Shown: positions 20,243-61,568 of the stretch, one piece after another
Numbering within the stretch: position 1 is the first letter of the stretch
Layout of the letters: every line of letters begins with the position of its first letter
Assembly: GCA_051294905.1 (NCBI GenBank)
Contig: CM119371.1
Location: 38,070,001 to 38,134,000 of the forward strand
Reading direction: 5' to 3'
Source: Botryllus schlosseri
Lineage: Eukaryota
Length of the DNA: 64,000 nt
Program-made: the position numbers and the translations under genes
The notes under the pieces: model-generated
The model's input: only the letters and a program-made list of their open reading frames with translations
Told to the model about the DNA's origin: nothing
The model's database searches: none

Positions 20243-20248
20243 AATAAA
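20243..20248 (+). promoter_or_regulatory. Probable polyadenylation signal of the cystatin gene
   Basis: AATAAA ~180 nt after the stop, followed by a T/GT-rich tract. Confidence 0.6.
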
Positions 20249-20521
20249 ACCATATATCCTTTGTTTTTGTTGTAATGAGATGCTTTGATTGGGATCAAAG
20301 AGTCCCGGGTGTTAGAATGATGTCGTTCTGATCCTCTTTAAATCCGTCTACCAGTCGCGGTTATAATATGGCGTCATCTGCTGGGGGCCTGCCAGTGTTA
20401 GCACACTCAAGCCACTGTAAAAGCCGGAACATCAGAACATCAGCTCCGTCTTCGCCCAGAATATCAGAAATTTCATGCCGGTGACGTCATAACTTACGAA
20501 TCGATTGTTGATACACAACGT

Positions 20522-22243: not shown

Positions 22244-22246
22244 TAG

Positions 22247-22408
22247 ACTGTACCCCCGTTTTTTTTCTCCTACGTGATTGCTGAGCGCCTAGCGGGATAA
22301 CCGCGGATACCAGTTTTCGAGTCTTTGGTCTGACCCGGCCGGGGATCGAACCCACGACGTACCGATCAAGAAACGCGACGCATCACCATTACACTATTTC
22401 GCTCGGCA
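22247..22408 (-). mobile_element. tRNA-derived SINE
   Basis: On the - strand: A-box-like TAGTGTAATGG, B-box GGTTCGATCCC, then GGTCAGACCAAAGACT core; second degenerate copy at ~52640-52752. Confidence 0.78.
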
Positions 22409-23828
22409 CAGTGTGCACACTGCACAGCCAGCTAAAAGAAGCGTAATTGGTAGTCCTATAGCTGGCGTCCCGTGAGCTAAAGGTCTCAATTGGAAGCTAT
22501 AGTGTCGCGCTGATTCCAAAAACACGAATTAATATGTTAACATGGCGACGGAGACACTCCGAAATAGCCGTCAAGGCCGATTGTTCAGAAAGTTGCTACC
22601 TTTTCGTACAAACCAACATGACGCCTCTAGGGCGAACACAAATTAAGATATGATCATATGAGGTTGTTCAACTTGAGATTTTAAAAGGGTTAGGAGGTTG
22701 GTGCGGAGCAGTGAAACCACGTTTGATAGTGGTGCAACAGCGTTTGATGCTTTACAATGGTTAGTTAATGCAAAGCTACTTGATTCGACACCTTATTTAT
22801 GCTCGTGTCTGAAACTTTTTCTGACCATTGGTGAGGAGCTTCTCAAAGCTCAAACTGATTTAGTCTTATTTACGTTCTACCATGAATGATGATCGGCTAT
22901 CAGCTCTATCCATTCTGTCTATAGAAAGAGACTACGTTCAAAAACTTGAATTTGAGGATATTATTGCTGATTTTACTTTGAGGCGGCTGTTGATTTTCTA
23001 TTTGCACAATACATTCGTTCGCTATTTCTTGTCTTTATTATTTTTGGCCTTATTAACGTTGTGACGGTGAGGCTGAGACGCGGCATATTAGTGGTATTTA
23101 TTTTTATTAACAAGATTGCTTGAACGTGAATCTATGTCGAAATATGCTGCGGTCAACTTAGGGGGGCGGCATTTTAAGCGAGAGCCAGGGGCGGCAGCAC
23201 ATGCTGCTACGCCAGTGGGTTCATGGCTGGTGAGGCACGTCCCCCCTCCCCCTACATACACAAACACGCACGCACGTAACAATAGCAGCGGGTATAGAGA
23301 GCATTTTCTTTGCACACTGGTAGCCGTGGCAATTCCATATTCTACTATACATGTAGGACTGGTCGCTATTGTGCTAAATGGGCAGGTTTAGACTGATAAT
23401 AATTACCATTTCTTCAAGTACCGGTATAAATTAATCTAAGCACAGGAAAATAGCATCCTCAATTACAAATTTTTTTCAGTAAAAAAAACACTAGATTTGT
23501 CGAATTTCGAAAGGAAATGCACTAGGACACTAGGTCAAGTCAAAATACACTAGATCTAATGTAAAAGCACTAGGAGTGGCACCTCTGACCACAAACAACG
23601 ACAACGCAGCCTGTGTAAGTATAGCTATCACATACCACAATTAGGGGTTAGAGGTATTGCAGTCGAACACAGCCTAAAGGACACAAACGACGACAATGCG
23701 GCCTATGCAAGTAGATGTCACATACCACAATTTAACGTCGTTATATGGATGGAAAATACATAACAGCTAGAAAGGAATGTATTGGCTCCGCATTACGTAT
23801 TAACCGTTGTTACTATATCATTCCTACA

Positions 23829-32168: not shown

Positions 32169-32278
32169 ATGGGACGTAAACTAGACCTCGGAGAACTTAC
32201 CGAAGAAGAGGAGAAAACTATTTTGAACGTCATCCAGCGTGATTATGATGTAAGAAGAGTCGAATCGCACCGAATCGA
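32169..32278 (+). CDS. MYRIP: MYRIP-like exon 1 (Slp homology domain SHD1 helix)
   Basis: MGRKLDLGELTEEEEKTILNVIQRDYDVRRVESHRI; donor GA|gtgagt, phase 2. Confidence 0.93.
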
Positions 32279-38200: not shown

Positions 38201-41200
38201 AGCTCCTATTCCAGTAGAAGTATCGATATCCCAGCAAGTGAAAGAGTGGATATTCTAGGCCTAGTTTTGGTTGTAGCTGAAAACTGAATTTTGCGCAGAG
38301 TAGTCCTGACTCGTAGCCATTTCAGGAAGTAGGCAAGATATGAGTATAATATGGATCGAGTATTAATTTGGTGAAATTCTTTGGGTTGATCACTACTTAA
38401 CAGGTATGCCATTTCCACAAACGTGGGTTGCTTTGTACTACCTGTTTCGTGTGCTACCATACGACCGATCGAGGTTTACAGCCTTCCGCAGTGGGAAATT
38501 GCATCAAAACCATGATTCTCCTTGATAAATTGACTCCTTCCAGCAAGATGCGTGTAATTTAAAGGGGCACTGCACTCTAAAAATGTCGCGGTCTTAAAAT
38601 TGAAGGGCAAAACGAAATAGAAATTTTGGCCGCAGCCATTTCTTCAGAACGCCGCCGTAATGGAGCTGCAATTTATTGAAATTTCCACAGGACCATCACG
38701 CTCCAGCAGTCGCGCAGAGATCGAAGTTCATAAGGTCGTCAGCCGATGTTATGAAGGAAATATGTCGTACACGCCAAGGTGGTTTAGATACCGCTTTGAA
38801 CGGAAGATGTCCAGTCAGGAGATTTATGTCAAAATCGGGCCTTGTATATTCTATTTCTTTAGGACAGGAATATATCATGTCCTATTCTTATGTATAAAAC
38901 ATTGTTAGACATGTTCTACTTCTGTCCTAAAGAAATAGAATACACTAGGCCCGATTCTGACATGAATCTCCTGACTGGACATCTTCCGTTGACGCGGTAT
39001 CTAGACCACCTTGCCGTGTACGACATATTCCTTTCATAACATCGGCTGACGACTATATAAAGTTCGATCTCTGCGTGACTGCTGGAGCGTGATGGTCCTG
39101 TGGAAATTTAAGTAAATTGCAGCTCTTTCACGGTATCGTTCTGAAGAAAATGGCTGCGGCCAAAATTTTTAGTTCGTTTTGCCTTTCAATTTGAGACCAC
39201 ATCATTGTTAGAGTGCAGTGCCCCTTCAAGTACTAGAAAAAAATCTATCTCTTTGCTCGTCTCGACTCATCAGAATTAATACTAAACTCAGATTCGAATC
39301 ATTCAGTGACTCGGTTTTACTCAGCGCTAATCACGAATGTGAGGGATTCACCAAGCAGAGTTCTATGACGGGAGTGGAACGGGACTTGAACTGGAGACTT
39401 AACAGTAATATAGATATGACTGGACTTGACTTGGACTAGGAATTGACTCGGTGGCGAATTACTTGTGGTAGAAATTACTTGTGAATAGAAACCTCGTGAC
39501 TTGGTGGCAGGGTTGTAACCTAGTCGCAAGGGTTCCGAGTCACATATCAAACTCAATTTATACTTATGACTCGAGTCGAGTCGAGTTATTTTTGAATCAC
39601 CACCTAGTCAAGTTCAAGTAGAGGACGGGTTCTGAGTCATTGTGTTTTGACTCGAGTCAGAGTCCAAGTCGTTCTGTGCACTGTTCATTTTATAGTTCAA
39701 TCCAGGTCAACCCACTGTTATCAACTTTGCTCGACGGATATAGAATGGCTCGCATTGATAATATAGTAATTTTCCTCAGGCTAAACCGTTTCTGACCCTA
39801 TTTTCCAAGTATCAGGATCGATAGACGAAATACTAATGATGTTGTGATTACTATACTTCGAAGTTAACGAGGAAATGTCTGTGTTGGCCGTCCTAGTCTC
39901 GAGTTATACGACTTGCCGAGTCAATGAAAAAATTGACTCTAGTCGAGTCAATTTATGCATTTCAGAAAGGGACTCGAGTCAGGTCGAGTCTCCAAAATAT
40001 CGCGACTGGTGTTGAGTCATGACTCGAGTCACGCTTGGTCGCAAGCCTGCCATAAGCATATCTGATGTTTCAGAGTCTCAGACGTCAACTGCTGATTCTA
40101 GCCCCGCGTCAATTCGACACTCACCCGCCATTGTTTTGTCACACGAAGAAACAATAGAGGTAATGTTATTCAAACTAGTGCAGGCCGAAGTAGAAATTGA
40201 CATATCGTGCTGTGTAGTAATATGATAATGCACGCTCCATCAGGAATTGTCTTGTCTGCTGCAATTGTAGTACCATACTGTTTGAAGACAGCGAAACCAT
40301 AGTGTCATGCAATGATGTGGACACAGCAAAATCGAACGACTCTCTGCGTTTGGGTTACGGCATACTTTTCATTCGGCCAAAGTGCCCCTTCAAATATGCA
40401 AATCCAACTCGAGTGCTAACGATAAGACATAAGAGGTATCGTTTCTCATCACAAGTAATGTGAATCTCTGCTCACATCCAAGGAGTACATGCCTACATTG
40501 CTTTGATTGGAAATTGCAAATGAGAGGCCTGAATAGTACTGAGATAGTTTCAAAGAGTATGTTTGGCCGAGGGCTACCATACCCATAGAAACTGTACTTC
40601 AGAACTGCGCTTCAGTAAGCTGTACGAGTACGCGAACCTACTCTTTTTTATTTTACATGCAGGAGTCTCATGTGGAAGCGGACATGTCGACACGGGCCGT
40701 GACTGACATGCAGGTACAGACGGACAGACAGCAAGCAGACGACTATCTGGCTGCTATCAAAGCAGAGCTCGAAATGGCAATTTCCGCATTGTTGTTGCCA
40801 AAATTGGAGGAATGTGAGACTATTTTTTTGCTGTTATTATAGCCATGTACGCTAGGACGGTGGTTCTTGACCTTTTTGACCATGCGGAGCGGTAAAACTT
40901 CAAAAATCAAAGTTAGACCTAATTTTAATTACGACAAATGTAGGCACCTGAAATGTAGCATTGGAAACTTTATTTAATGCTGGCTACTTGATAGTATATA
41001 TTGGTACGTGGTTGTATTGAAGTTTCTTCAAGGTGAAGCTCGCCATGTCCTGTTAAAGACCTCTCACTAACTTGATTGCGAATGTTCGGTATCATTTTAA
41101 AGAAATGCGACTTTGATGTTTGCTATAGTTTCTGTTATACTGCCAAGTGTCGCTTGATTGCACTGTCGGAATTTCAAAATCTCTGTATCTCTCACGCTGA

Positions 41201-44200
41201 ACTCGTCTGAAACAAGTTGTAAGCTACTTTTAGACAGTTTCGTACGCCGTTGTGTCGTACGCCCGAAGTATATGGTGAACTCTTAATTACGATGACACGC
41301 AGAAAACTAACTTTGCAACTTCTGAATCAATTTAAAATTTAATGTTTCATTTCTCTACTGACTGGACAGTGGACAAACGTCCACCTTGCTTTTTGAAATT
41401 GGAACTAAAGCACTGCAATAGGGTATCTTAGCCAATTATCACATCGTTGGCTAGCAGTAAATACAATTATGCCAATAAAACAATAGTTGGTTATCTATAT
41501 CCTGAGCGTTGAATGTAGTTTCCGAAGTCGTTCGCAATAGGACTAAATCTGTTCAATGTCAATTCCTTGATAAGATTAAATCAAGATAATATTATGTTAT
41601 GGAATAGCCAAGCTATTCTGGTAGTGAATTGAAAATGCCAAGCTGCAAGCTACAGATTGTAGTTTCATGTTACGGTTTACATATGCAGAAGTTTACGGTA
41701 ATCTGATCCAGTAAAAGGCAAATTTTACTTTCAGTGAAACAGTCGCACCATCAATCCGAAGTGGAACGTAGCGAGAAAATAGAGTCCGCGGTTCGTCTGG
41801 CGGAGGAGATGATCGACAGGGCTTTGGAAAGCGCGAAAGCGAAGCAGAGTCTGGAGGTTGGTTCGTAGCGGGCTTGTAAAAAATACTATTTAAAAAGGCC
41901 ATATCTGGAACTACTCGCTTTTCAAAATACTTTACTAGAAGTAGAACTAGAATTAGCCTACTTATTTTTTTAAAATATGCAGCTAGAACTAGATCTGGAA
42001 CTACTAACCGTTCAAAATTCGTAACTAGGAGTAGAACTAGAATTACTGAACTTTCAAAATTCGCAACGATAACCACATCTAGAACTGCTCAATTTTCAAA
42101 ATTCGCAACTAGAACTGGATCTAGAACTACTCGATTCTCGAAATGCGCAATTTAACTAGAACTGCAACTGGTCACTTTTCAAAATTCGCAACAACAACTG
42201 CATCTAGAACCGCTCCATTCTCAAAATGTGCAACTGGAACTTTAACTTTAACAAGGTACTCACTTTTCCAAATACGCAACTGGAGCGAGATCTAGAACCA
42301 CCCACTTATCAAAATTTCTAATTAAAACTAGATCTATTGCTACTCACTTTTCAAAATTTGCCACTAAAACTAGATCTAGAACTACTCACTTTTCAAAGTT
42401 CACATCTAGAACATTATCTCGAACTACTCATATTTCAAAATGCGCAACTGAACACTAGAATTACTTTGTTTCAAAATACGCTACCAGTACTAGAACTACT
42501 AACTTTTCAAAACACCCAAATGGAACTAGTCAGTTTTCGAAATTTGCAACTAGAACTACATTTAGAAACTGCCCAATTTTCAAAATGCATAACTAGAACG
42601 GTAACCACTCACTTTTAGAAATTTGCAAATAGAACTAGAACTGCTTGCTCTTCAAAAAGTACACAAGCACACCATTTTAAAAATTCGCAACTAGAACTAG
42701 AACTAGAAATGCTAGAAAAATAACCGTAGTTAGTTGACAGCCGTAAAAGCGAGATCGGTAGTTTGCACAAGTTTGTCAACCTGTAGATGACGTCACCTCT
42801 GCATGCCTTGTGTCGTCACACAGTCGCTCTTTTCTCAGTCGGACGGCGGAAACTTCCTTCTGGCGAAATATCTTTCCGACAGCCGGCAGGAACTCGTCAG
42901 GAACGTGACAAGCCAAATGCATGACCAGGTCTTCTTACTAACCACTTCTGCTTTTCACTCGAGTAGTTTAGAGTAGTTCTACATTTAGATTGGCTTTAAC
43001 ACTTTTTGGTCAAGTACTCAAGTAGGTAGTGTCAACTTGCGCTACTCAGGGGGACTGGCGCCTATAAATTTGATAACTTATCGAAATTTTCAAATTTTTT
43101 CGGTTGGAAATCCTAACATGGTACCCTTGTTCTTATATCATGGCCTTGTCTCACCAAACAAAATGAGCAAAATTGCAAAATTACATTCTTACTGAGCATG
43201 CCGCCAGTATTTTCTTTTACTGCGAAACTGTTTTTCTCACTCGTAAAATTTCGTTGTCTCGCTGCATCATAAACCGAGGATTTGTACGAAATTTCTGTCG
43301 TAAATGACTCGCTGATTTTTGCAAAGCCAACATTCAAATCTATGTTTTGCTAATTTTTGTTCGGCCTAGGTATGCCATGCTTTGAGCTACAGAACTTTTT
43401 AATAAAATATTGAATTTTGAAATTTCAAAACTAATTTTCGCCGAGATGAGTTGCACATAATCCTTCAAACTTTAGCAACAAGTAGGACTGTTCTGTTACT
43501 TCCTAAAACAGAGTGACTGCAAAAGGAGAGACACAATTTTAAGGTACGGTGTTCGACGTTTCATATCACTATTTCTTTTGTCAAATCCAAATTTTGTGGG
43601 CTAGAACTATTATTTGTTATATTTTGTTTGAAGCATAGCAGCACCTTGCATCTGTGAAAGTTTCAAGGTGATGAGGGTGCCGCTTCACGAGATAGCTCTG
43701 CGAAACCGTGTTTCTCACACGTAAAATTTCGTTATCTCGCTTCATCGTAAACGAGGATTTGTACGAAATTCCTGTCGTAAATGACTCGCTGATTTTGTAA
43801 AAGACAACGTTCATATCTATATTTTACAAATTTTCGTTTCGCAGAACATAACTTCACGGTGAAATTTTGAAAAACAATATTGAAATTTGGAATTTCAAAA
43901 CGAAATTTCTCCAAGATCAGCTGCACGTAATCCTTCCAACCTTAGCAACATGTAGGACTGTCCTACTACGGTACTTCCTAAAACAGACGGTAGATAGGAA
44001 ATGGGACACTACGATTTTTAGGTACGGGGTTTGGCATGTCAGAGCACTATTTCTTTTATCAAATCCAAATTTTTGGGGGCTATAACTACAATTTTTGATA
44101 TTCTGTTTATAGCATAGCGACACCTTGCAGCTGTGAAAATTTCAAGGTGATGGAAGTAGCTCTTTTCGAGATAGCTTTGTTGAGGTGCTAGTCTGCTTGA

Positions 44201-47200
44201 AAGTGACGAAAACTAATTCTATTAACCACTGCCACATTCTACACTGCTTACTCTAGTAGTTTTGAATGGCTGTTCTCAACCTTTGCAGCTTGTTCTGTGC
44301 AAAATTTTTCAAAGTTGTCAGCAATGATACTTAAGTAGCAGTACAAGTACCGTGCCACTAAATTCTGAAAACTCAAGTAGCTTCTTTCAAGTTGGTATGA
44401 CGATGGTTCCCACTTGTAATTTCTACTCGGAAGTTTTTACTCAAGACGTTCAGAGTATTTTTACTCAAGTTTTGGTAATTTGCTTTGTTGTCAACTGGAA
44501 ATTCGCATCTACTTTTCTTAGGACGCGAAAAGTGGACGAGAAGTTTCGACGATGACCGAGACGTCGGACTCTGAAATCGAGTCGAGTCTGGTGAGAAGTT
44601 TGAGTCCGGACTCGGTGAGGAGGACGCAGGACGTCGTGCTGCAGAAAAACCAGCTCGTTGCTCGGGCCGACATCGACAATGCACTCGGAGAGATTTTCGG
44701 TATGAACTTGACAACCAATTACCAATAATATACTTGGTCTGATATCACAGGGGGCCATGGGACAGGATGCTTTGGCAAGGTTTTCAGTATAAATAGCGGA
44801 AAGATTAGGGTTACCATATTTTTGCGACACAAATTCCGGACGCTCGTCGGCGCCCACTAGTGGATTTTAAAATAAGGTATGAGCATATTGTCGATCACTA
44901 TGACGTCACACCAGCAATGCTTTGTCTATCGACTAGAGGTGGTCACGATCCGGTTCAGGAGTATATGGTTGTGTGTTGTAAGTTGTAACCAGGTCCTAAG
45001 CCCCATTTTTTCAGCCCATCATCAACAAATAAACACTAATTTTTGGCCCACCATAGTGTAATCGATGCAACTTCTGGGGGCTTACTATATGCATATGGTC
45101 GGTAAATGATTTGAATGAATTATGTCAATAATACTGGTTCTTCCACATATTACTATACAATTTTGATCCTCTCTCCGCCCACATGATCAGATTTAGCAGT
45201 ACACAGCTAGCTGGTGGAGGAGGCTGACTTCGAAAATGCAAGAAGCGTAATTATACATTGTTAAGTCATGTTCGTGTCACACCGACAAGCTTATTTATCA
45301 GCCTAAAGCCTGAGATTACTGTACCACTGAGCTATATAAACACCCTAAATCCGGTGGCTTCGCACCTTTTATGGGCGCGACTCCATTTTCAATTTGCCGT
45401 GGCCTAGCTCCAAATTTTATAAGCTGATTACTAATTAAAGGTCCGCAAATTTACCTAGACTTACTCACAGCCGAATTTGAAAGCTGATTACTTTCAACAT
45501 CATCGTGAACCCCAGAGGCCTAGAATAAAGGCAAACTAACCCAGGTTTAGAACCACTATCTTTGAACAAAGCATCAAATAAACGGCGATTATAATTGAAC
45601 TTATTTCTGTAAATGAACGCAATTTTTTGCGAGGGTGGTAGTCCCCATATTAAATCTAATATACGTGATGCTGTATCGCGCGCAGCGCGAAGAAAAATTT
45701 CACGAAGCATAAATCTAGCCAAAGTAATGTTGTTTATGTTGATTTACGAGAAAATCATGATTTTACTTGAAGCCTTCAAAATTCCGGACATTTGGGCATA
45801 TTTCAGAAATTCCTCCCGGACGCAGTTTTAACAGTGAAATTCCGGACATGTCTGGGAAATTCCGGACGTATGGCAACCCTAGGAAAGATGAATGGGAGAT
45901 CGGCAGTCCACAACACATTCGATGTATCCAACTTGCAGAGGGACAGGTTCAACCAATGAACCTGGAACCTAGTGCAAGGAGAGAGATGTGATATGGAGGA
46001 TGGAATTCTCATTTCAGATTAGAAGGTTGTGTACCAGGTCACTGCTCTGTGTGTTCAGTCAGGGTTTGAGAAGGAGCCCATCTTGTTACAGGAAGGAGAG
46101 ATTGTTTTTTAGACATGAAGAAACTGTTCAGTGCAGGATAATTCAGCTGTTTCATAGGGATTTGCAATGACAGTATGCAGATTGAAAGAAGTTTTGTCAT
46201 ATTGGGATTGAAAGAACAAGGTTTCTAGAGCAAATTGCCTGAAGTCATTCACTGTCATGAGCGTTTATATATTGGCAATACAGATTTATTCATAACATTC
46301 AATAGTGAGGTCAGAGATTGGTACGTGTGCTAGGGCACCTATTATGCTGAAAAGTAAGTAACCGAGGAGAGACGGGGATCATTAGATGTGAAATTATTTT
46401 TATGGAGTTACCAGGGTTTGAAACAGGTCTCCTAGAGCAGTGCTCTTCAGCCGGGCGTACCGTGCCAGAAATACTCGAGGGTTCACCACTTCTAAGGGAT
46501 ACAAGTGCAAGTGATGAAGACCTTTTTTAGTCATCACTATGTTAGTGAAGGCAAGAGTGTTTATTTATAGTTGTCACGGTTATTGTTGAACACTACTGTA
46601 ATGGGGCGTATAGTTTTTTGTGAATGTTGAAATGGTGTACTATTCTGAAAAAGGCGGAAGTCCGCTGTCCTAGCACACCGTGCACAGAAAAGTGAAAAAG
46701 CTGCACTGAGGTGATGTCAGAGAAAGATAAATCCTATATATGCTAAATTAAGCTGTCATATTGCTGAATACATGGCTCATTTTACTTTCTAAATCGTAGA
46801 ATGGAATGTGAAATGGGTATAATTATGAAACACTCGCGACCATAAGTCAATCGCCTGAATGACAGTTATCACGCAGACTGTTTATATTGGCTTGCATTTT
46901 GGCTCAAGTCCACTATTTTTGTAAATAGGTGAGGGTCGTTTTCCTGATTAATAGTAGCTTATGTCCCAATACAGCTTTAAAAATATGATCATTTCAGCTA
47001 TAAAAATAACATGAAATGAATCTTCATGTCTCAACTTTCTCATCAAAAAGATATTAGTCTGGTCCCTCATTGACCCAAGTCAATTTATTTCAAGTTAACT
47101 TGTTTTGAGTCAATTTTTAGGTTAATTTGTTCCGAGTCAATCTGCGAGTCAAGTTGTTACAACTTGATTCACGAGTCCATTTGCTCTGTTTAGATGGTTC

Positions 47201-50200
47201 GAGCTCGCCACAACAATTCAGAACTTCCATCACTTTCACCGCCATCGATCGCCAGCCAGAAAGCATGTGTGACGTCACAGAGGACGACAATTGGACGTTT
47301 TCGGGGTTACGAATTTCGTCGGACCCCGAAGTTTCAGAGTCGACCAGAGACGACTCAAATGGGGAGCAGCATATTCCGGCAACTCAAGTTTGGTCCGTTT
47401 TCTTTTTTTTTAATTTTACTTTTTGCTTAGATTTCCAATTCTGCGTGACAGGCGGTCAAACGTGACAGACACACCTCAATCCCTGTCGAGCTCGAAATTT
47501 GAAATCGTAGACGATCTGCCCCGGAAACAACCAAGGCCAATTGATGTCGCCGACAGCCCTGCGCTGATCCGGTCCATGAGTCAGGAAATTGATCACATGG
47601 CTCCAAACGAAGAGGTCAGACAATTTTGGTTACGGTTTGTCTATAGATTACTAGTCCACAGATAGATATGCAACTCCCGTTGTTGCACTTCGTCAAGCAG
47701 TTTCATTTACTAGTGAGCAATATGAAGGCAGCATGCGCAAGAAGTTAATGCAACTGATCTTAATCGAAAGATAGTTTCGCACTAATTTGGAAAATACCAA
47801 TCAAATGTAGTCATTGCATTAGAAACGGCCCTCAAATTATGAAATCGACATTGTTCTAACAACGGGAGCGGCGTTACACGATAACCATAACAATGCCTAA
47901 TTTCTTCAAGCAATTGTTCGGAATAATGCAGATTTTCAGACTTTGAAGGGTGTTTCGGGGTGGTTACATTGCCCTTACCAGATGCGCTTGTGTATCTATC
48001 CTTAGGTTAGTAATCTATAGTTTGACAGGCTTTTACTTCGGTGAACATGCCCATTATTTAAATCTGTAAATTTTCCTTCAGCCTGGATCTGTGGCTCCCC
48101 CTGGTGTTGTCGAAGAATTGATCCGCCCTGTCGATCGCGACGTCGTTGATTCATCCCCGGCCCAGGACACGTGAGTTTGAAATTGAATAAAATCAAATGA
48201 AAAACGAATTTGTGACAAGGCATCAAAACAGAGGCTCCTACAAGAAATAATATGAAATCAAACATCTTAATGTTCCGCTAGACTGTCTTGAACTGCCGAA
48301 GGCAAACTCGAACTTGCACTGTGCCTGCTATTGCGCAGTGTAGAGCTCATGTACTAGATCCATTTGGAGTTCTTGGAATGAATTAGAACATGGGCCACCA
48401 AATCAAAATTAGCCAATTTTTCAACCTGGTAGGTTGGCGTTGCCGACGAAAACAGCAATATCGAAGGCAAAGGTTCTAAAATACTGCCGAGTCCCACAAT
48501 CCACCTTTATCGTTCAGAATATGTCCTGGTGTGCTACATCCAGCCCACAGGCAGCGAGTTTGACCCTTGAATTAGAACATAGGAAATAAATTGGTTTGGC
48601 GCGAATTCCAATGCTTTATTGTAAGATCTCTTCATCGTAGAATGTCATTAACAGGCTTGACCTTAACGACGGAAGGGAATGGATTCAGTCGTTTAGTTTG
48701 TTATCATGTAACAATAATTTTACTGGTAGTTACCGTATTGTAAGATTCAATTTACGTATATAATTAAGGCAGAGGGATAGGAAATACTAAGTACATGATA
48801 CAGTCCGATGCAACTCTGTTGTAGCACCTCACGTCATCCGGGGTGATAAAGTAGCGGGTCGGGTGTATCAGCCTCTCATTTTCTGCAGCAGATACCGGTA
48901 ATGCTTAAAATTGATGAAAATGATGAAAAATTGCAGAATATCGCAAGATGACGCCAACTTCATGGCTGACAACGACGACCTGGACGAAAAATTCTCTCTG
49001 ATTTTGGCTGCCGAGGCTCGGACTGGAGCAGAAAAAGAGACGCAATCGCACGTTTCCGTGACAACCGAAATGACCAGCAAAACACCCGATGTGAGTTTTG
49101 TGACAGTTTTGGTTCTCGGCTGTTTTAGCTCAGGGCACAATTTCAAAAATAATTTTGCGGATCAGAAATATTACACTGCTTTTCCAATATTATTATTATT
49201 AGGCACAGTTCTATTGAAGTTTCTGCGAGTCTTGTTATAAACCACTAACTTTATTTTGATCGTTCGGTTTTTCCCGACATGGCCATCCTAGGTAGAGCTT
49301 GAGAGCAGAGTCTAAACTTGGTTTGTGCGGTCACGTGAAGGTAAATTACGGAGATCAGACGGTAAGTTATTCCATATAGTGACACCAATAAACATGATTG
49401 AATTTTGCACAAGACTGGTAGAGTGGTGACAGGAACAGGCAGGAAAATCTTTTGCAATGCTGGGAATATCCTAAGGTGTGTGGAACTGATTAGTGATTAC
49501 CAAAGTATAGTGGTAGTTCACCCAGTATATCAGCACTGTCAGTCATCAATACAAACTCGATGGAAGAGACTGCGTCTGGGCTATATAAGTAGCCAGTTTA
49601 ACTGCTCAGGACATTCAGTCAAACTTGCTATTGCTATACTTTAGTTCTGCTACTTATCTGACTGAATGATAGGAAACCGAGCTCCTGCAAGAAAGTTAAA
49701 CAAATGAGCTATTAGAAAAGATAGCTGCGAGAAAGTCCAAAGCAGCACGGCAGTCTTACAGTTCCCTGGTTGGTTCAGGCTTCAGGCTGGCCCTGTGGTA
49801 GAATAGGTAGCTGCAGTGAAAACAAGCTTAGAATGACAGACTTTTACAAACTACTGGATTGTCAAATTGCGCAACTCGCAATATGAATTGTTGATGAGCT
49901 AAAAATGTTTGAGATCGAATCGGCATTTCAAAGGGTCGGGGTTTCTAGATGGGATGGGTTTAACTAACTAGATGGGCAGTCTGTACAAGTGTTGGGATCA
50001 AGTCACTACCTTCTATTCACGAGTCATTGCTCGTTTTGACTCGAGTCAAGTCATTCGATTTGTGAAGGTGACACGAGTCAAGTCACTCAGTCATTTCGAA
50101 GTTCGATATATGATTCTAGCTATTGCATCTTGCAAGATGGATGTAGTACATATTGATCTACTATTAACTGTGAATCGAGTAACGAATATCGTGTTAATTG

Positions 50201-53200: not shown

Positions 53201-56200
53201 GTTGTTGACTAAATACAGCAGATGTATGGTTATGACATAGCCAGCAAACATCTTCATATTTAGGAAGTCGAAAAGTTGTTGGCCGGCCGTTTGGACCCGT
53301 AAACTTCATGTCACCTCCACCTGTTTCTTTGTCGTTTTCCATTACAAGACCTGCAAACCAGTCACTATCGTCTATTGCAGCTGCGTATCCACTTGGTCTT
53401 AAAGTAACGGCACAGGGTTGACTGCGACATGCGAACTGCAGAATGCGAAATATAAGCATAGCTAGCTTTCATCAATGCCCCACTATATACTTGGGTTACC
53501 ATATTTTCGTGGGCCGAATTCCGGACACTCTTTATCGCCCCCTGGCTGGTTTCAAAATGACGTATGAACGCATATGACGTCACACTGACAATGCTTTGCC
53601 TATCGATTGTATACAGGGCTGGGTTCTTTAACAAGCGCTTTTATGCTATTTCGAATTTGAGCTCTAGTGATTGCTAGGGTCGGTGTTCTCTTCTGGTCTG
53701 CAACAGACTTCTTCATGTGCCATATGAAATTGTCTGGCCCGTCGGCCATGTGTTTGATAGCCCTGCTGTACTGTTAGGTCGGTGCAGATATGTGACTCTG
53801 TGTTGTAGCCAGACCGAAACAACACTTCTGTGCCAACTCCCGCCCCAAAAACACTGGTCTGAACTGAGGCCCACAGGGTGATCGATACAACTTCAGGTTA
53901 GCTTACTATATGCGACTGGTTGTTAAATTTTGTGAATGCATTCTGTCCGTAAATTGGTTTTTCGATATATCACTATAAAATTTTTAGCCTCTCTCAGCCC
54001 ACGTGATCAAAGTTAGCGGTAGAACTGATGGAGATGATGACTTTGAGAATGCAGGAAACGTAATTGTACATCGCTAAGACATGCTCATGTCACGCGCAGG
54101 CGCGTAGACAGGGGGAGGTAATCGGTGTCCAATATCCCCCGTTCCCAAGCTCAAATACCCCTCCTTCCTGGTATATCTTAGTATAATTGCTCATTCGTGA
54201 TTAGATTGCTCGATTCTCATTCGTGGTTATGAGCGTTTTCACAGAACAGTATATGCGACGAAACCCATTTATCTCCTATTCATCTCCCGTCTGTGACTGA
54301 CAGCGGGACTAATTAGTGTATCGTTTTACATTGCACCCGAAGATCTCGCCACTCGCCATTGCGTGTGCATAAGCACGTTACCTAAGGTTGTAGGCCTATT
54401 ATTAGAGAAACCTGCAGTACCATAACAGATTGTCACTGTAGCGGTCGATGCAACGACTTGTTGCAAGACACGCTGGTCGTATAGTGCTTGATTGGAGTCG
54501 ATGCTACGGCCACAGTTCCTGTTGTACGCACTAGCCAAGTGACGAATGACCGCTCTGAGATCACTTGCAATTTTGATCACACACGCAGATCCAAGGAGCT
54601 TTCTTCAATAGCTCAGAACAGCCAAATAGTAGTAATTAGTGGTCAGAAACGTGTAGATTTACCAGGATCAAATCATACTGCAATATATTAACAAATACAG
54701 AAAGAACAAACTGAAATGAATCTAATTTGTAGATTTAGCGAGGACAGGGCTACACTCATTGAAATCAATATATGTAACAGTAAATAGCGCGTAGCGCGAA
54801 GAAAATTTCCAAGTAGCATAAATCTTCAAAATAAGATATTGTTTATGTTGATTTACGAAAACATTTTCATCTCCCTTCAAGCCTTCAGAAGTCCGGACAT
54901 TTAGGCATATTTCAGCGTTTCCTTCAGGACGCCGTTTAAATATGGAATACGGACATGTCCGGGAAAGTCCGAACGTATGGCAACCATAATATAAACTCAA
55001 GTTGTTATGCTTGTGGGCTGCTTTTAACTTCTACTGGAACATTGTTGTCGGCATAACCATTTACTTCCTCCACGTCGGAATATTTCATTTATGAGCGATA
55101 TTGACGTAAGGATACAGGACGGAGCCCGTGTAACGCGGTGGCTGCCCGTATTTTTTAAAACAAACAAGATGTAGTGTGATTATTCATTGCTAGTTAGTCG
55201 TGAACACAAATTGTACGATTGCTAATTTAGTCAGCCTTCAACCAAATCTTCATTTATACTTCCACTGGAAGTAGTTCTTTCCTAGGTATTGGAAATCGCT
55301 ACTTATGCTCATAAGCAAGTGGAACTCTACATCTACTTGCGTACCGACGAAGTCTACTGATCGACTAATACGATGGAGCTTGTTCAGAGTTTGTGGTCTA
55401 TCTAGCTGGCGATTGCGTCGCACTGTTTAGCTGTATTTTATCAAAATTTATTGCCAAGACACAGTTCTATACCTTTCTATATTAAGCGTTTCATTTCGAA
55501 TGAGCTGCTATAAATCATAAAACAAGTTTGGTGGTTCTCTGATGTCAATAATATACTACGCTTCTGATGCATGTGCTGTGATGTAGACAAATTTAGGGGT
55601 ATCAGTTCGTTGTTAGTGTTTGGTTGCAAGTTGTGCTTGTTCTGATATTCACTTGAATATGCTCAGTCAAGCGGCCTATGCCAGACAAGTCAATATGGAA
55701 ACAGCAAACCAGTACACAAAAGAAAACACCATTGATACACCTACAGATGTGCAAAAGCGGGGCGCGCTCAGCACAAGAATGCAGTCCTCAATATGAGGGA
55801 AACATTATGGGAGTAATTGCCACTTCACGAACAGCCGCCTGGGTATCTTCAAGTATTGCATAGCAGTAGGAATCTGAGTTTATTACCAAACGTTGACTGC
55901 AATCGCGACATTTTCCATAGAGGAAAGATTGCTCTTGGCATTGTGCGTGTATTTACCAATTATGCATTGATTAAAATTACCAGTATATCATATAGGAGAG
56001 TAATGTCAGGCGAGTAATCCCCTCGATTTGAAATTCAGAATGCTTCAAGCTCTTCGAGCTCTTCAAGCTCCTCAAGCTCCTCGAGTGCGGATTCTGACAT
56101 AATGGCGGGAAAACCGATCGATCTGATTATGGCAGAATTGAGGCAGGCGGGTTTGGAAATTCACCGCGGAAATTTCAGGAAATCTGCAGACAAAGGAGTG

Positions 56201-59200
56201 GGGAAAATCGTGAGTTTCTCATATATTGGAATATTTCCTGTTGTCACATGAACTGATTCCAGGACGGAACACCTATCTCGAAAACTGATGACGTCACAAA
56301 AGCTTTTGAGAGCTCTTCTTCGTCTTCTAGTGGAGATTCTGAAAAAGGAGTAAGAAATATTGTGAATTTCTTCCTATATTCAAATTCATCCCTTTGACAT
56401 TAACCTGATTGCAGGACGTACGACCAGTCTGGAAAACTGATGACATCACAAAGTCACTGATATTGAAGACTGACGAGGTCGCAAAGGATGTTGAAAGCTC
56501 TTCTTCATCTTCATCTTCTTCTGGTGGAGAATCTGAAAAAGGAGAAAGGAAGATTGTGAGTTTTTTCTTATATTCAAAGTTATTTCGGTCTCACATTAAA
56601 CTGATTTCAGGATGTAACACCCATCTGGAAAACTGATGACGTCACAAAGTCACTAATATTGAAGACTGATGACGCCACAAAAGCTGTTGAAAGCTCTTCT
56701 TCGTCTTCTAGTGGAGATTCTGAAAAAGCAGAAAGAAAGATTGTGAGTTTTTTCTTTTATTTAAATTTATATCTATCACAAAATACACTGATTACAGGAC
56801 GTAACACCCATCTGGAAAACTGATCATGTCACAAAGTCACTAATATTGAAGACTGATGACGCCACAAACGCTGTTGAAAGCTCTTCTTCGTCTTCTAGTG
56901 GAGAGTCTGAAAAAGAAGGAAGGAAGATTGTGAGTTTTTTCTCATATTCAAAGTTATTTCTCTTTCACATTAAACTAATTGCAGGATGTAACACCCATCT
57001 GGAAAACTGATGACGTCACAAAGTCACTAATATTGAAGACTGATGACGTCACAAAGGATGTTGAGAGCTCTTCTTCGTCTTCTAGTGGAGATTCTGAAAA
57101 AGAAGGAAGGAAGATTGTGAGTTTTTTCTCATATTCAAAGTTATTTCTCTCTCACATTAAACTGATTTCAGGATGTAACACCCATCTGGAAAACTGATGA
57201 TATCACAAAGTCACTAATATTGAAGACTAATGACGCCACAAAAGCTGTTGAAAGCTCTTCTTCATCTTCATCTTCTTCTGGTGGAGATTCTGAAAAAGGA
57301 GAAAGGAAGATTGTGAGTTTTTTCTCATATTCAAAGTTATTTCTCTCTCACATTAAACTAATTTCAGGATGTAACACCCATCTGGAAAACTGATGACGTC
57401 ACAAAGTCACTACTATTGAAGACTGATGACGCCACAAAAGCTGTTGAAAGCTCTTCTTCGTCATCTTCTTCTAGTGGAGATTCTGAAAAAGAAGGAAGAA
57501 AGATTGTGAGTTTCTTCTTATATTCAAATTCATCCCTCTCTGACATTAAATTGATTGCAGGACGAACGACCAATCTGGAAAACTGATGACGTCACAAAGT
57601 CACTAATATTAAAGACTGATCACGTCACAAAGGATGTTGGGAGCTCTTCTTCGTCTTCTAGTGGAGATTCTGAAAAAGGAGAAAGGAAGATTGTGAGTTT
57701 TTTCTTATATTCAAAGTTATTTCTCTCTCACATTAAACTGATTTCAGGATGTAACACCCATCTGGAAAACTGATGACGTCACAAAGTCACTAATATTGAA
57801 GACTGAGGACGTCACAAAGGATGTTGAGAGCTCTTCTTCGTCATCTTCTTCTAGTGGAGATTCTGAAAAAGAAGGAAGAAAGATTGTGAGTTTCTTCTTA
57901 TATTCAAATTCATCCCTCTCTGACATCAGACTGATTGCAGCACGTACGACCAATCTGGAAAACTGATAATGTCACAAAGTCACTAATATTGAAGACTGAT
58001 GACGTCACAAAGGATGTTGAGAGCTCTTCTTCGTCTTCTAGTGGATATTCTGAAAAAGTCGAAAGAAAGATTGTGAGTTATTTTTCTAACCTAATTTATA
58101 TCTATCTCACAGTAAATTGATTGACAGGACGTAACACCTATCTGGAAAACTGACGACGTCACAAAGTCACTAAGATTGAAGACTGATGATGTCACAAAGG
58201 GTGTTGAAAGCTCTTCTTCGTCTTCTAGTGGGGAGTCTGAAAAAGAAGGAAGAAAGATTGTGAGTTTTTTCTGATATTCAATTTTATTTATCGATCACAA
58301 TGAAGTGATTGTAGGACCTACCGCCTATCCTGAAGGCTGGTGACGTTACAAAGGCGGTTGAGATCTCATCTTCGTCTTCTTCAAGTGGAGAGTCTGACAA
58401 TGGCAAAAGAACGATTGTAAGTTTTTTCTTTCAATCAAATTCATTTATCTGTCGAACTAAACTGATTACAAAGGCTGTCGCGAACTCTTCGCCGTTTCCA
58501 AGCGAGCGCGAAATTGCTGATAAGTCCTTGGACTCATCTTCAAAGCTGAAGATTGCTGAAAGACCGCGAAAAGTCAATATCGTGAAGAAAGCTGTAAGAT
58601 TTTTTTTTATTTTCAACCAAAGTATTTTTACAACGATTCTTTTTCTTTCAGGGTGACATAATTCTGGAGGTTGAGAAATCCTGCTCTTCGTCATCCTCTA
58701 GTGGATCTTCGAGACGCGACAGCTTGGAGGAAGTCATCGAGAACGTATATCTGAACTTTTATTTCACTTTTGTCGAGATTATAATGTCACAAAATATTTC
58801 AGGTCCAGCCCTTCGATCGGACGAAATCGATTCAAAAATCTCGATCCAGCTCTTCGTCTGCCTCCAGTGACTCCTCGAAGCCACCGAGCGCCAAAAGCCA
58901 AGAGGAAGTGAGTCCAATCACATTTCAACATGACACTGATGTTATAACAGTATTTACAAGCGAGGAACATTAATGAAGGCAACATTTCTTCACCTGATGG
59001 AATTTTATAAAACGACTGGACAACGTATCAATACAAATATAAATCAATTATTAACGACAACAAAGTAAGCATAAAAGGAAATGGAACCCATCATCTATGG
59101 GAATATGGAATGAAATTACAACAGCCGGAAAAATACAAGTCATCTATGTATCAGTGGTTCTCTGACTGCGACCAATCCTTGATGCGTGGTGACTTCAATT

Positions 59201-61568
59201 TGTGCTGAAACTTCCCCCTTTCAATAATGTTGTTAACCTAACTATAATTCGATTTGAAATGTCATAATTGCGTCGTACCACCAACACGCTGATGGTAGAT
59301 TTTGACCGATACCGAACCTTGCACTAATCAGAAGATGTCCTTGAATGAAGTGTAGCTTAACTGATGAATGGGTGTATGTCATTGGTTTTTGTTTTAGATG
59401 ATTTATGGTCAGGTACGTTTGAGCTAAGGTCAAGTGAATTAGGCACCCAAATCGTTAAAATACCTACATGTTACGAGCTACATATGGTACATACATACAT
59501 ATGAGCATTGCATATGGTTATGTTTAACGAAACATTCAACTGGACGTTTTTCGTGCTACGCGCGATTTACCTTCAGCTCATAAAGAATTGCATGGTGCAT
59601 AGTCTGAATTTTATATTTGGAAGTGTTTCAACAGCCATAACACCTTCCATGATACCAAACGGAATTGCAAACATTCTTGATCCTCATCTAATAATTTTGA
59701 TGTGACGATATAGGGGGGTGCGAAATTTTTCACTGTCATCAAGGGTATCTCGTCGAAAAGAGTTTAAGAACCACTGCTCTAGAACTTGTGTTCTTGACAC
59801 GTGGAAATTTTATCATCACATATTGAGAGTTATATCCTCTCGTAGTTTGGCACTGTTAGATGTGAACCATAACTGTCGACACCAAAGTAAACTTGACTGA
59901 ATACAGACTGATTTTGCAGCATACAATGAGCTACCGTGCTAGCTTTGCTATTGTGGTCCCTGAACAAGAACTGGTCTTGACGAATAATGGTTTATTTAGC
60001 TGATATCAATGGTCATAACAATATCTCGGAGATCTGCGAAGACTTCTGAAGCACTTTAGCGATCCACGCTAAAAATTGGTGTAAGAACCCCCGCTTTAGA
60101 AGCTAACTTATGGAAGAAAAACATGATTTTGACACAGCAATACCAATTGTTTCTATATGTCGTTACCTGTGAAAGATTGTTATCAAATTTTATTGCCACT
60201 ATGATAAATATTGCCTCAATTTGAATAGGACACCATTCCGGCAATATCCAAGAGCCTGTTATCTGATGGAGAACGAAAAATTGTGAGTTTTCCAATTGTG
60301 AATTTTCACATTCCAAATTGTGCCATGTCTGATTGACTGATTTTAGGCCGTCACGAGCTCTTCGTCATCAGCTAGCGGCCAAGTGGACGAGGTGAGTGTT
60401 TTCACACTCGCAGAGCGCACCATGACTTTTTAATTGCGCGTTCCAGAGCTCTGTCGCAATCCGAATGATAAATTCCAAAACGGTCACGATTTTGTCAGAG
60501 GCTATCGAGAAATCTTCTTCGTCGTCCTCCAGTAGCTCGTCGAAACCCGAAGACTTCGAGAGAATTCACAAACTCAACCAAGCCGAAGAAGCTGTGAGTC
60601 AGAGATTTACTGAAAATACATAATTAATTTGGTTCAATCCATTACTTAATCCGATCGCGAATCCAATAGCAACAGAAATCTGTTCAAATGTAGCATGAAA
60701 ACTAGAAAGTATCAGAAATTTTGGATCCAAAGCCATATTTAATTAGTTTCATGTTTAAAGCAAAGTGCATAACCTTTATTGGCAAAAACGATTGTAAATT
60801 TGATAACGAAATCCTGCTTCAATATATTCCTAAATTCCATCTAAATTCGATCGGTTTTCTTTCAAGTCCAAACTGATTGCTACCGCCACGGTTATTTTTT
60901 CAGATTCTCGTCAATTCCGCTACTACGTTCGCGATGGGCGAGAAACTCGATGAAACGGAACGCAGAGTCAATGAAGCGGAACGCAGCGACGCGTCAATCA
61001 AAGCCGTGATGAACGACATCGAGTTGGAGATCGACAGAGCAGAGAAGCAAGTCGCAGATATCAGACGAGGGGTAAGTGCTAAATGCGGAAACTGTCAGAT
61101 TTACAATAAATCCAAATATTCTGGCAATTTAATTGCTTACGTAGTTGGTCGAGGGGTTCCACTTAATGAAACTGCCTGACGATGACTACGTTCAAGATCT
61201 TTCATTTCTGCATGTCCTTGTTACTTGCGTAGAGATTTTGGGCGATATCGCAATTAGTTTTTGACTACCTCGCCGAATTTGATAAGATTATAGTGTTGAT
61301 GTGTCTCATATGTAGCTTTCAAAAATATGACACAAAGAATCGTACCCTCATGTCATGACATCACATTACGGTGTGATGCGTACGTTCCTGATCAACCTCA
61401 TTAGTTTCACGGGAGCACTACATATATACGGCCAGGCCCCCCCCCCCAGATGGGGGTGCCTCTAAATTGTAAAATGCGCGTTATTAAATTTGTTTCACGC
61501 TTCAGCGAACACCGATCACGGACAGAGCCGGACAGACTTCGAGACTTCGGACCGTAAGACGCAAATAA
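32169..61568 (+). CDS. MYRIP: MYRIP/melanophilin (Slac2)-like Rab27 effector, ~35 exons, ~1414 aa in my model
   Basis: Phase-consistent exons: 32169-32278, 33632-33740, 35182-35288, 37799-37923, 37999-38043, 40074-40159, 40663-40813, 41735-41856, 42839-42928, 44522-44699, 47194-47392, 47452-47614, 48082-48170, 48937-49090, 56039-56209, 12 repeat exons 56263-58416, 58474-58593, 58652-58744, 58803-58907, 60229-60282, 60347-60391, 60447-60593, 60904-61071, 61506-61568. Diagnostic segments: N-terminus MGRKLDLGELTEEEEKTILNVIQRDYDVRR, Zn finger CAKC/CDGC/C..C/CTAC, GEWFY-RHGGAKV, AVRLAEEMIDRAL, C-terminal coiled coil. The last exon and the 47392/47452 junction are less certain. The symbol marks the family; orthology to MYRIP versus MLPH is untested. 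Confidence 0.85.
33632..33740 (+). CDS. MYRIP: MYRIP-like exon 2 (first Zn-finger Cys pair)
   Basis: QLNEDVNKEEVVRNDAEVSDLCAKCGSKFVWLINPK; donor AAG|gtaaat; acceptor is GAG. Confidence 0.85.
34373..34953. mobile_element. CAGGGTTGTAA-family MITE (GACTCGAGTC-rich)
   Basis: TIRs CAGGGTTGTAA / TTACAACCCTG; diverged TSD AGGATTGG/CTGATTGG. Confidence 0.85.
35182..35288 (+). CDS. MYRIP: MYRIP-like exon 3 (Zn finger)
   Basis: SQCDGCELFFCKNKIDCITYDKVSKKCFCTACVKQR; acceptor ttttcccag, donor gtttgg. Confidence 0.9.
35829..36372. mobile_element. CAGGGTTGTAA-family MITE nested near the end of a CAGTGGCGGAG element
   Basis: TSD GTTCTCAG/GTTCTCGG; colinear with 34373-34953. Confidence 0.85.
36859..37426. 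mobile_element. CAGGGTTGTAA-family MITE
   Basis: Colinear with 34373-34953; diverged TSD GTAGGAAG/CTAGAAAG. Confidence 0.8.
37799..37923 (+). CDS. MYRIP: MYRIP-like exon 4 (SHD2, GEWF motif)
   Basis: NLATLAGEWFYSKLKGKFRRHGGAKVSREIQKRRK; probable GC donor gcgagt. Confidence 0.9.
38563..39225. mobile_element. Palindromic Kolobok/T2-like MITE
   Basis: TTAA|AGGGGCACTGCACTCTAA ... TTAGAGTGCAGTGCCCCT|TCAA; arms of ~315 bp are inverted copies around a short spacer. Confidence 0.85.
39508..40033. mobile_element. CAGGGTTGTAA-family MITE nested in an older, oppositely oriented relative (~38067-40049)
   Basis: Left TIR CAGGGTTGTAACC; TSD CTTGGTGG/CTTGGTCG; right TIR eroded. Confidence 0.75.
41735..42928 (+). 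CDS. MYRIP: MYRIP-like exons 8-9 (41735-41856, 42839-42928), probably within the myosin-binding region
   Basis: IESAVRLAEEMIDRALESAKAKQSLE|SDGGNFLLAKYLSDSRQELVRNVTSQMHDQ resembles the recalled vertebrate MYRIP segment ALRVAEEAIEEAI...ASYLRDHKEEL. Confidence 0.75.
41895..42720. repeat. Degenerate ~36-42 bp minisatellite in MYRIP intron 8
   Basis: About 20 copies of TAGAACT(AGATCTAGAACT)ACTCACTTTTCAAAATTCGCAAC; short inverted relatives at ~34020-34095 and ~36520-36580. Confidence 0.85.
43215..44178. repeat. Two diverged tandem ~480-bp units, probably TE-internal
   Basis: aaatttcgtt-tctcgct-catc-taaac-gaggatttgtacgaaatt-ctgtcgtaaatgactcgctgatttt recurs at ~43246 and ~43724; both units end tttcaaggtgatg...gagatagct. 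Confidence 0.8.
44806..45881. mobile_element. hAT non-autonomous element (TAGGGTTACC ends, TCCGGAC subterminal motifs)
   Basis: TIRs TAGGGTTACCATA / TATGGCAACCCTA; perfect TSD GGAAAGAT; diverged homologue at 53491-54988. Confidence 0.88.
49987..51998. mobile_element. CAGTGTTGGGA-family hAT MITE with nested Charlie-like element
   Basis: Ends AAGTGTTGGGATC / GTCCCAACACTG; TSD GTCTGTAC/GTCTGTAT. Confidence 0.82.
50511..51722. mobile_element. Charlie-like non-autonomous hAT nested in 49987-51998
   Basis: Ends TAGGAGTTCTCAA / CTGAGAACCCCTG; perfect TSD CTCTAATC. Confidence 0.85.
52814..53079. mobile_element. TAGGGTTAC-family MITE
   Basis: Ends TAGGATTACCATA / TATTGTAACCCTA; TSD CATATAAA/CATAGAAA. 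Confidence 0.75.
53491..54988. mobile_element. Diverged copy of the 44806-45881 element with internal insertions
   Basis: Colinear blocks (tatgacgtcacac, atcgat-caacttc, gtttatgttgatttacga, cgtatggcaacc). Confidence 0.75.
56263..58416 (+). repeat. Tandem array of 12 coding exon+intron units (~187-196 bp period) inside the MYRIP-like gene
   Basis: Exons at 56263-56361, 56415-56555, 56611-56742, 56798-56929, 56985-57116, 57172-57312, 57368-57505, 57561-57692, 57748-57885, 57941-58072, 58128-58259, 58315-58416. All are phase 0 with 53-55 nt GT-AG introns. Consensus DVTPIWKTDDVTKSLILKTDDVTKDVESSSSSSSGDSEKEGRKI. Confidence 0.92.
60904..61071 (+). CDS. MYRIP: MYRIP-like C-terminal coiled-coil exon
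   Basis: ILVNSATTFAMGEKLDETERRVNEAERSDASIKAVMNDIELEIDRAEKQVADIRRG; acceptor tttttcag, donor gtaagt. Confidence 0.85.

Follow-up and report, generated by a model that had tools for sequence, protein, structure and literature searches.

Twelve tandem exon-intron cassettes in a predicted Slac2-type Rab-effector gene of the tunicate Botryllus schlosseri

The stretch of Botryllus schlosseri DNA considered here, called the window, comprises 64,000 nucleotides (nt) of contig CM119371.1 (assembly GCA_051294905.1, positions 38,070,001 to 38,134,000, forward strand). It contains a long gene on the + strand that opens with a predicted Rab-binding head and carries, further downstream, an array of twelve cassettes at 56263..58416 (+), each formed by an exon and a short intron. 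Positions are those of the window, and those beyond 64000 are window-extended. The original prediction, made from the letters alone, held that twelve such units keep GT-AG sites, phase 0 and an open frame, and encode 517 amino acids (aa). Segmentation of the repeat bears all of this out and confirms the unit structure, with its 11 internal introns, to the base.

The array exons

56263..56361, + strand: unit 1, 99 nt, degenerate, one sub-repeat; RNA entry joint
56415..56555, + strand: unit 2, 141 nt, from repeat segmentation
56611..56742, + strand: unit 3, 132 nt, from repeat segmentation
56798..56929, + strand: unit 4, 132 nt, from repeat segmentation
56985..57116, + strand: unit 5, 132 nt, from repeat segmentation
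57172..57312, + strand: unit 6, 141 nt, from repeat segmentation
57368..57505, + strand: unit 7, 138 nt, from repeat segmentation
57561..57692, + strand: unit 8, 132 nt, from repeat segmentation
57748..57885, + strand: unit 9, 138 nt, from repeat segmentation
57941..58072, + strand: unit 10, 132 nt; RNA joint 58072|58128 in X6 and X11
58128..58259, + strand: unit 11, 132 nt; RNA joint 58259|58315 in three of three RNA-contig runs
58315..58416, + strand: unit 12, 102 nt, degenerate; exit joint 58416|58474 in three of three RNA-contig runs

Joined, these exons make 1551 nt. Frame 0 contains no stop, the other two frames contain 28 and 80, and 2000 base shuffles of the joined exons contain 35 on average and at minimum 17. 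All 12 donors are GT (10 GTGAGT, one GTGAAT and one GTAAGT), all 12 acceptors are AG, and a CTRAY branch-like motif stands 10-12 nt before the AG in nine of the 12 introns. Introns of the array and its flanks measure 53, 53, 55 (ten times) and 57 nt, the internal ones being 53 or 55. Each of the twelve cassettes is phase 0-0, and so is every exon between 56039 and 61071.

Tandem Repeats Finder describes the array by a period of 187 nt (10.7 copies, 84% matches) and, fitting slightly better, by one of 380 nt (5.3 copies, 88% matches). The unit is private to this locus: it matches the genome of 495.5 Mb in 219 contigs 11 times as DNA and 12 times as protein, each time within the array. As predicted, the two flanking units are degenerate, units 1 and 12 each missing one copy of an 11-residue internal sub-repeat. 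Because they hold one of the two sub-repeats, the 44-residue unit appears to have arisen by internal duplication. Differences in length had been attributed to serine codons only, which is right for the 138-nt exons, with two more of them, and incomplete for the 141-nt exons, where extra serine codons are accompanied by a serine-to-glycine change that gives GG.

Transcription and the surrounding gene

The expression of the array can be followed in spliced RNA contigs from three studies (X6, X9 and X11), placed on 44001-64000. They enter the array at joint 56209|56263 in two of the three runs (X9, X11), pass from unit 10 to unit 11 at 58072|58128 in two (X6, X11) and from unit 11 to unit 12 at 58259|58315 in all three, and leave by 58416|58474, again in all three. 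Each of these joints is GT..AG, as are five junctions downstream of the array, as far as 58907|60229. A single X9 contig runs from unit 11 through unit 12 into the exon that follows, and four of four array bins are covered by RNA contigs in X6, X9 and X11. The transcripts sampled thus neither skip the array as a whole nor end upstream of it. Together these observations support cassettes that are real, frame-preserving and expressed.

Three other accounts of the repeat were tried and rejected. Mutually exclusive splicing conflicts with the joint inclusion of units 10-12 in RNA contigs, a gene on the minus strand with the GT..AG orientation of the joints on the + strand, and a non-coding satellite with the open frame, the RNA evidence and the substitution pattern described below.

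Upstream, RNA joints were found at 42928|44522, 44699|47194, 47614|48082, 48170|48937 and 49090|56039. The last of these closes an intron of 6948 nt (GT..AG, in X6 and X11), and a 59-nt intron at 47393-47451 is removed in an X11 contig. Joints are continuous from exon 42839 via 49090|56039 into the array, which places these exons in one transcript. A joined model of 33 exons, in which exon 40057-40159 was picked by frame alone, encodes 1386 aa and has no stop. The exons around the array are the following.

32169..32278, + strand: exon 1, encoding the initiator methionine and the SHD1 helix; 32193-32282 aligns with positions 2-31 of the FYVE_2 profile
33632..33740, + strand: exon 2, first part of the zinc knuckle; joint 33740|35182 in four of four RNA runs; residues 45-82 of the Styela clava orthologue introduced below
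35182..35288, + strand: exon 3, remaining zinc-finger cysteine ligands; FYVE_2 positions 70-105 (expectation value, E, 0.0077); 68% to orthologue residues 82-118
37799..37927, + strand: exon 4, SHD2 motif, matching melanophilin residues 126-149; X9 RNA contig 37797-37897; 3' end set from frame and GT only
40663..40813, + strand: helical exon; 65% to orthologue residues 274-310; X6 and X9 contigs
41735..41856, + strand: helical exon; 56% to orthologue residues 311-351; frame open
42839..42928, + strand: exon; joint 42928|44522 in three of four runs
44522..44699, + strand: exon; joint to 47194; orthologue residues 397-482
47194..47392, + strand: exon; adjacent pieces of one X11 contig (record 4)
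47452..47614, + strand: exon; 59-nt intron spliced out in X11 record 4; joint 47614|48082
48082..48170, + strand: exon; joints on both sides in three of four runs
48937..49090, + strand: exon; joint 49090|56039 in X6 and X11
56039..56209, + strand: exon with a run of 14 serines and a helical motif; joint 56209|56263 in X9 and X11
58474..58593, + strand: exon after the array, phase 0-0; RNA joints
58652..58744, + strand: serine-run exon, phase 0-0, weakly unit-like (local tblastn to the unit, E about 5e-4); RNA joints
58803..58907, + strand: serine-run exon, phase 0-0; RNA joints
60229..60282, + strand: small phase 0-0 exon with a unit-like end; joint 58907|60229, sequence and frame
60347..60391, + strand: small phase 0-0 serine-run exon; sequence and frame
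60447..60593, + strand: exon with a run of 10 serines; 43% to orthologue residues 873-935
60904..61071, + strand: coiled-coil-like exon, internal; RNA contig piece 60904-61070; weak tropomyosin-type matches only

The gene reaches at least 11 kb past the end of the window, with orthologue matches to at least 74921 (window-extended). The coiled coil at 60904-61071, which had been taken for the C-terminus, is therefore internal. Between 64932 and 70256 a simple open exon chain was tried and rejected, every splice combination attempted being closed by stops. Further along, at 69668-70272 (5668-5938 and 5999-6272 in L001), a second tandem pair was observed, in which a serine-rich unit of two exons occurs twice with 79% identity over 274 nt; it probably lies in the same gene.

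Outside the head, similarity searches returned little. Exons 40663 and 44522 had no match among solved structures and the zinc-finger exon no relevant one; word-indexed protein searches with the array unit, the zinc-finger exon open reading frame (ORF) and the exon-1 ORF gave no match; the helical-motif exon 56039-56209 matched no Pfam family and nothing in the ESM Atlas; and no paralogues of the middle exons were found elsewhere in the genome. In introns 1-3 (32500-37800) RNA contig depths reach the thousands, with many jumps that are not GT..AG. This signal is that of a very abundant transcribed repeat family, which recurs in the ORF lists.

The Rab-binding head, a relative and the history of the array

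The coding sequence opens at the first ATG that follows an in-frame stop, 13 codons further upstream, and an SHD1 helix stands at the initiator methionine. Exon 1 matches residues 8-43 of melanophilin (2zet_C) at E 4.6e-6, the second-ranked solved match being Slp2-a (E about 0.05). Nine cysteines in exons 2-3 are predicted to form a zinc finger between SHD1 and SHD2, and for the SHD2 exon melanophilin is the sole solved match (E 0.0085). In the ESM Atlas, exon 1 gave a lead only, to a cluster (0.89) in which 13% of the members have FYVE_2.

Slac2 proteins are Slp homologues that have no C2 domains. Of the 70 C2 matches found genome-wide, none falls on the contig of the array, while three other FYVE_2 loci are each followed by C2 exons on their own strand, 7-13 kb further on, which argues for a gene of Slac2 type. 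The three loci, likely rabphilin-, Slp- or RIM-type genes, are listed here by contig (C2, C9 and C10).

C2:12060490-12071523, - strand: FYVE_2 locus with C2 exons
C9:19876932-19885075, - strand: FYVE_2 locus with C2 exons
C10:21491211-21504836, + strand: FYVE_2 locus with C2 exons

With exon 1 as query, an exhaustive HMMER search returned 15 proteins within an E limit of 0.001. First among them was XP_039253023.1 of Styela clava, a protein of 1687 aa recorded as 'titin homolog isoform X7' that is 78% identical over residues 1-36. FYVE_2, at residues 9-131 with 81 bits, is the one Pfam domain it contains; C2 is absent, and its head matches melanophilin 2zet_C at E 3.2e-16 and rabphilin-3A at 0.0024. 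The public name looks like an automatic misnomer. Placed on the window plus 30 kb downstream, the protein gives ten collinear + strand matches over residues 1-1513 with 43-78% identity.

Window 32169, + strand: orthologue residues 1-36
Window 33639, + strand: orthologue residues 45-82
Window 35179, + strand: orthologue residues 82-118
Window 37794, + strand: orthologue residues 117-207
Window 40705, + strand: orthologue residues 274-310
Window 41728, + strand: orthologue residues 311-351
Window 44531, + strand: orthologue residues 397-482
Window 60444, + strand: orthologue residues 873-935
Window-extended 64935, + strand: orthologue residues 992-1017
Window-extended 74790, + strand: orthologue residues 1470-1513

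This collinearity indicates that the Rab-binding exons, the array and the later exons belong to one gene. A Rab_eff_C match was absent from 177 + strand ORFs of the window and from 143 downstream ORFs; a genome-wide profile search was likewise empty, but its positive controls were silent too, so that it counts for little. The decisive result is that the full-length orthologue has no Rab_eff_C at E up to 0.1. Since this homology is missing even there, we file the gene, on sequence grounds, as a Slac2-type Rab effector with a melanophilin/MyRIP-like head and not as a MyRIP orthologue. Of the MYRIP-like effector originally proposed, the Slac2-type Rab-binding N-terminus without C2 stands and the homology of the body does not; the myosin-binding region placed before the array had been an assumption to which no Rab_eff_C homology corresponds.

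A second SHD1-type first exon was observed at C14:4040001-4080000 (L004, about 5043-5150), 44% identical to exon 1 and without a C2 exon within megabases. On the same strand, 8.7 kb downstream, there is a single open frame of 4674 aa (joined coordinates 13895-27916) built of acidic serine/threonine repeats of 78 nt (26 aa) with lysine-rich spacers. If both belong to the same gene, this would be a putative case of a long repetitive body held in one giant exon instead of in cassettes.

The comparison with S. clava also indicates that the array is an addition to the shared gene. In isoform X7 no array unit was found (best E 0.63), and the interval between the anchors 44695 and 60444 amounts to 916 aa in B. 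schlosseri and 390 aa in S. clava, an excess of 526 that nearly equals the 517 aa of the array. The helical motif of exon 56039-56209 has a second copy about 8.7 kb downstream (64932-65009, 65% identical), while S. clava has one copy. As the motif matches S. clava only at residues 984-1017, the place of the downstream copy, the copy ahead of the array would be extra as well. A derivation of the array unit from the exon after the downstream motif copy was considered and rejected, as there is no similarity.

How have the units changed since they were copied? The ten core exons, described beforehand as near-identical, are pairwise only 85.5-98.5% identical (mean 90.7%). The introns, thought to have been homogenised, are in fact more diverged than the exons, with pairwise identities of 68-98% (mean 81.3%), about as much as synonymous sites. 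The per-site synonymous divergence (pS) in the array is 0.221 and the replacement divergence (pN) 0.083, a pN/pS of 0.37 that is indicative only as the pairs are not independent; variable sites number 12, 10 and 19 at the three codon positions. Intron divergence close to that of silent sites, together with the lower replacement divergence, suggests that drift acts on introns and silent sites alike, with the peptide under constraint.

The introns fall into three types: a after units 2, 4, 5, 6 and 8, b after units 1, 7 and 9, and c after units 3 and 10. The exons that come after type b introns form a subtype of their own; the resulting two-unit blocks (1-2, 7-8 and 9-10) account for the 380-nt period. 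A tree of the units supports a single clade, that of units 1, 7 and 9 (97/94). Five places outside the array hold serine-run modules too, with 17 runs of at least five serines in the 1200 aa modelled.

The window holds one more repeat structure, at 12828-13984. A tandem array of 64/199 nt (13118-13728) lies between two arrays of a 23-nt repeat (12828-12952 and 13860-13984) whose consensus units look like mutual reverse complements; a possible reading is a mobile element whose inverted ends are repeated.

Readings of the array and their significance

The array has a simple design: one repeat per symmetric exon, in which serine/acidic segments alternate with basic ones. It consists of 22% serine, 12.6% lysine, 11.8% aspartate and 9.9% threonine, has a net charge of -19 and contains 17 minimal CK2-type S/T-x-x-D/E sites. 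AlphaFold2 models a single unit with a predicted local distance difference test (pLDDT) score of 61.8, a helix at residues 10-23 and values below 50 in the serine run. The array is probably best read as twelve tandem copies of a phase-0 exon with an intron of about 55 nt, spliced into the mRNA of a Slac2-type Rab effector and encoding a likely disordered, phosphorylatable spacer.

We picture its history as follows. The founder would be a single serine-run module of the kind that recurs elsewhere in the gene, and unequal crossing-over in steps of one and two units would have made the array grow. Silent and intronic sites would then have drifted under moderate purifying selection on the peptide. 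The product would be mostly disordered, serine/acidic stretches alternating with lysine-rich ones, with a short helix-prone hydrophobic motif in each unit. Lying between the Rab-binding head and the coiled-coil exon, it would lengthen the flexible body of the adaptor and supply many phosphorylation sites. As all cassettes are symmetric (phase 0-0), loss or gain of any unit, be it by splicing or by recombination, would leave the frame intact. The likeliest role of the array would be to give the body of a vesicle adaptor a long, flexible spacer open to phosphorylation.

Several observations weigh against this picture. The 15 joints listed of 51 include none of the eight that connect units 2 to 10, and the raw RNA run X23 yielded no joint (299 reads placed, 296 of them fitting only in part). 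Two RNA contigs jump between non-adjacent units (56357->56798 in X9 and 56556->57175 in X11), which could be repeat collapse, skipped units or an allelic difference. The splice path from exon 4 (37927) to exon 40663 is not fixed by RNA joints; there, an X6 contig at 38167-38402 (to about 38401) is spliced at both ends and, read from exon 4, meets an in-frame stop at 38285. It may represent an alternative exon giving a short head-only isoform, or the long form of a coding exon that has an earlier donor. The depth ratio of RNA contigs between head and body exons varies between runs, so that some isoforms may be without the head. The comparison with S. clava covers isoform X7 only, and longer isoforms might hold related cassettes. 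Finally, the AlphaFold2 model of the unit is of low confidence and built on 12 similar rows.

The main functional rival of the spacer is an array of multivalent motifs, a possible though rather unlikely alternative. Here the twelve copies of a tryptophan/leucine/isoleucine patch with an acidic serine run would form a platform for avid binding of a partner (motor, actin, kinase or scaffold) under the control of phosphorylation. The best-conserved columns of the unit would suit such a role, being the P-I-W-K-T-D start, the serine run and the G-x-S-E-K..R-K-I tail, as would the pN/pS value and the helix propensity of the hydrophobic segment in the AlphaFold2 model; an excerpt of PMC3632108 moreover presents repeated short motifs in tandem exon repeats as a known theme. 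However, the unit-bearing ORF has no Pfam match and no known motif was matched, and the absence of the unit from the S. clava protein would make any partner site lineage-specific.

Could the array simply be tolerated, as a nearly neutral insertion that lies in disordered sequence and is itself without function? The body of the gene is indeed long, serine-rich and poorly conserved, orthologue residues 483-872 having no match here, and a second tandem pair exists at 69668-70272. We nevertheless consider it unlikely: exons are more conserved than introns, the pN/pS ratio speaks for constraint, and the twelve units have kept all their splice sites and acquired neither stop nor frameshift despite a silent divergence of about 20%.

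It is more doubtful still that typical mRNAs carry a subset of the units, so that isoforms of graded length prevail and the full 12-unit protein is rare. The uniform phase would allow this, the two contig jumps would be its traces, RNA contigs end exactly at several exon borders as they would where splice paths branch, and the S. clava record is labelled as an isoform. Yet jumps between units that are 90% identical are to be expected from short-word assembly, units 10, 11 and 12 are found consecutively in RNA contigs, and the canonical donors and acceptors of all twelve units, with the CTRAY motif in nine of 12 introns, speak against it as well.

A bolder extension is, in our estimate, improbable. 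It would make the array a lineage-specific, copy-number-variable and alternatively spliced phospho-switch that converts a vesicle adaptor of Rab27 type into a multivalent scaffold resembling Treacle. Cassette choice and kinase activity would set its length and charge, and these would tune the reach and the tightness with which secretory or pigment vesicles are tethered to the actin cortex. That the copy number is an artefact of assembly is very improbable indeed. The assembly was probably built from the DNA runs X1-X4 themselves, but the units are on average 9% different from one another and have introns of three types and exons of three lengths, which does not look like assembly stutter. Unit-specific junctions at the two ends of the array moreover recur in RNA contigs of other samples, and the assembly comprises only 219 contigs.

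The spacer finds its closest setting among the Slac2 proteins. Like melanophilin (Slac2-a) and MyRIP (Slac2-c), the predicted protein has an SHD1, zinc finger and SHD2 head starting at the first methionine, no C2 domains and a long body with coiled-coil-like parts. A passage in PMC4760305 describes MyRIP as a Rab-binding head, a myosin-binding middle and an actin-binding tail, and one in PMC11231147 on the melanophilin-Rab27B structure identifies the SHD1 helix as a main contact. The gene differs from both in that neither window, downstream sequence nor orthologue gives a Rab_eff_C match or an identified myosin- or actin-binding motif, and its body is about twice as long, with the 517-aa array in it. 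The lack of body homology fits a statement in bioRxiv 10.1101/591974 that MYRIP is reportedly very poorly conserved outside vertebrates. In PMC4164782, Ciona has genes that carry the annotations Mlph and MyRip. Our literature searches for work tying melanophilin or MyRIP to tandem repeats, serine-rich regions or exon duplication returned nothing relevant. The S. clava protein shares collinear exons, the same head and FYVE_2 as the single Pfam domain, and differs in having no array unit, one helical-motif copy versus two, and 526 aa fewer between the anchors.

Arrays with one serine/acidic/basic repeat per exon are already known. Treacle, according to a section of PMC9133508, has 11 central repeats over exons 6A-16, with acidic serine clusters containing CK2 sites between basic stretches. 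The alternation of acidic serine clusters and basic stretches with CK2-type sites, found in Treacle (TCOF1) and Nopp140, is resembled by the array in design only; no Pfam match of this kind was found on unit-bearing or flanking ORFs. Both Treacle and Nopp140 carry a LisH head and reside in the nucleolus, in contrast to the vesicle adaptor predicted here. Tandem duplication, too, is an ordinary route for linker growth: symmetric exons encoding disorder often duplicate in tandem, the repeats of ameloblastin being an example in the part of PMC3632108 concerned with them. The array shares with such cases exons of the same phase, similarity between successive exons and, presumably, a mostly disordered product, and differs in that the whole exon-plus-intron unit has only 187 nt and a two-unit higher-order period.

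Nothing in these findings overturns current knowledge. What the array offers is a clean, expressed example of a disordered linker growing by duplication of whole exon-intron units, with steps of one and two units, a peptide whose constraint can be measured and a near relative that has no array. The analysis also identifies a tunicate family of putative Rab effectors, publicly annotated as 'titin homolog', in which a head like that of melanophilin precedes a very long body rich in serine. As MYRIP and melanophilin have been described as hard to trace outside vertebrates, the gene is a concrete candidate from a non-vertebrate chordate. If the number of units varies between individuals or transcripts, it would provide a natural length series for relating the length of a linker to the tethering of vesicles.

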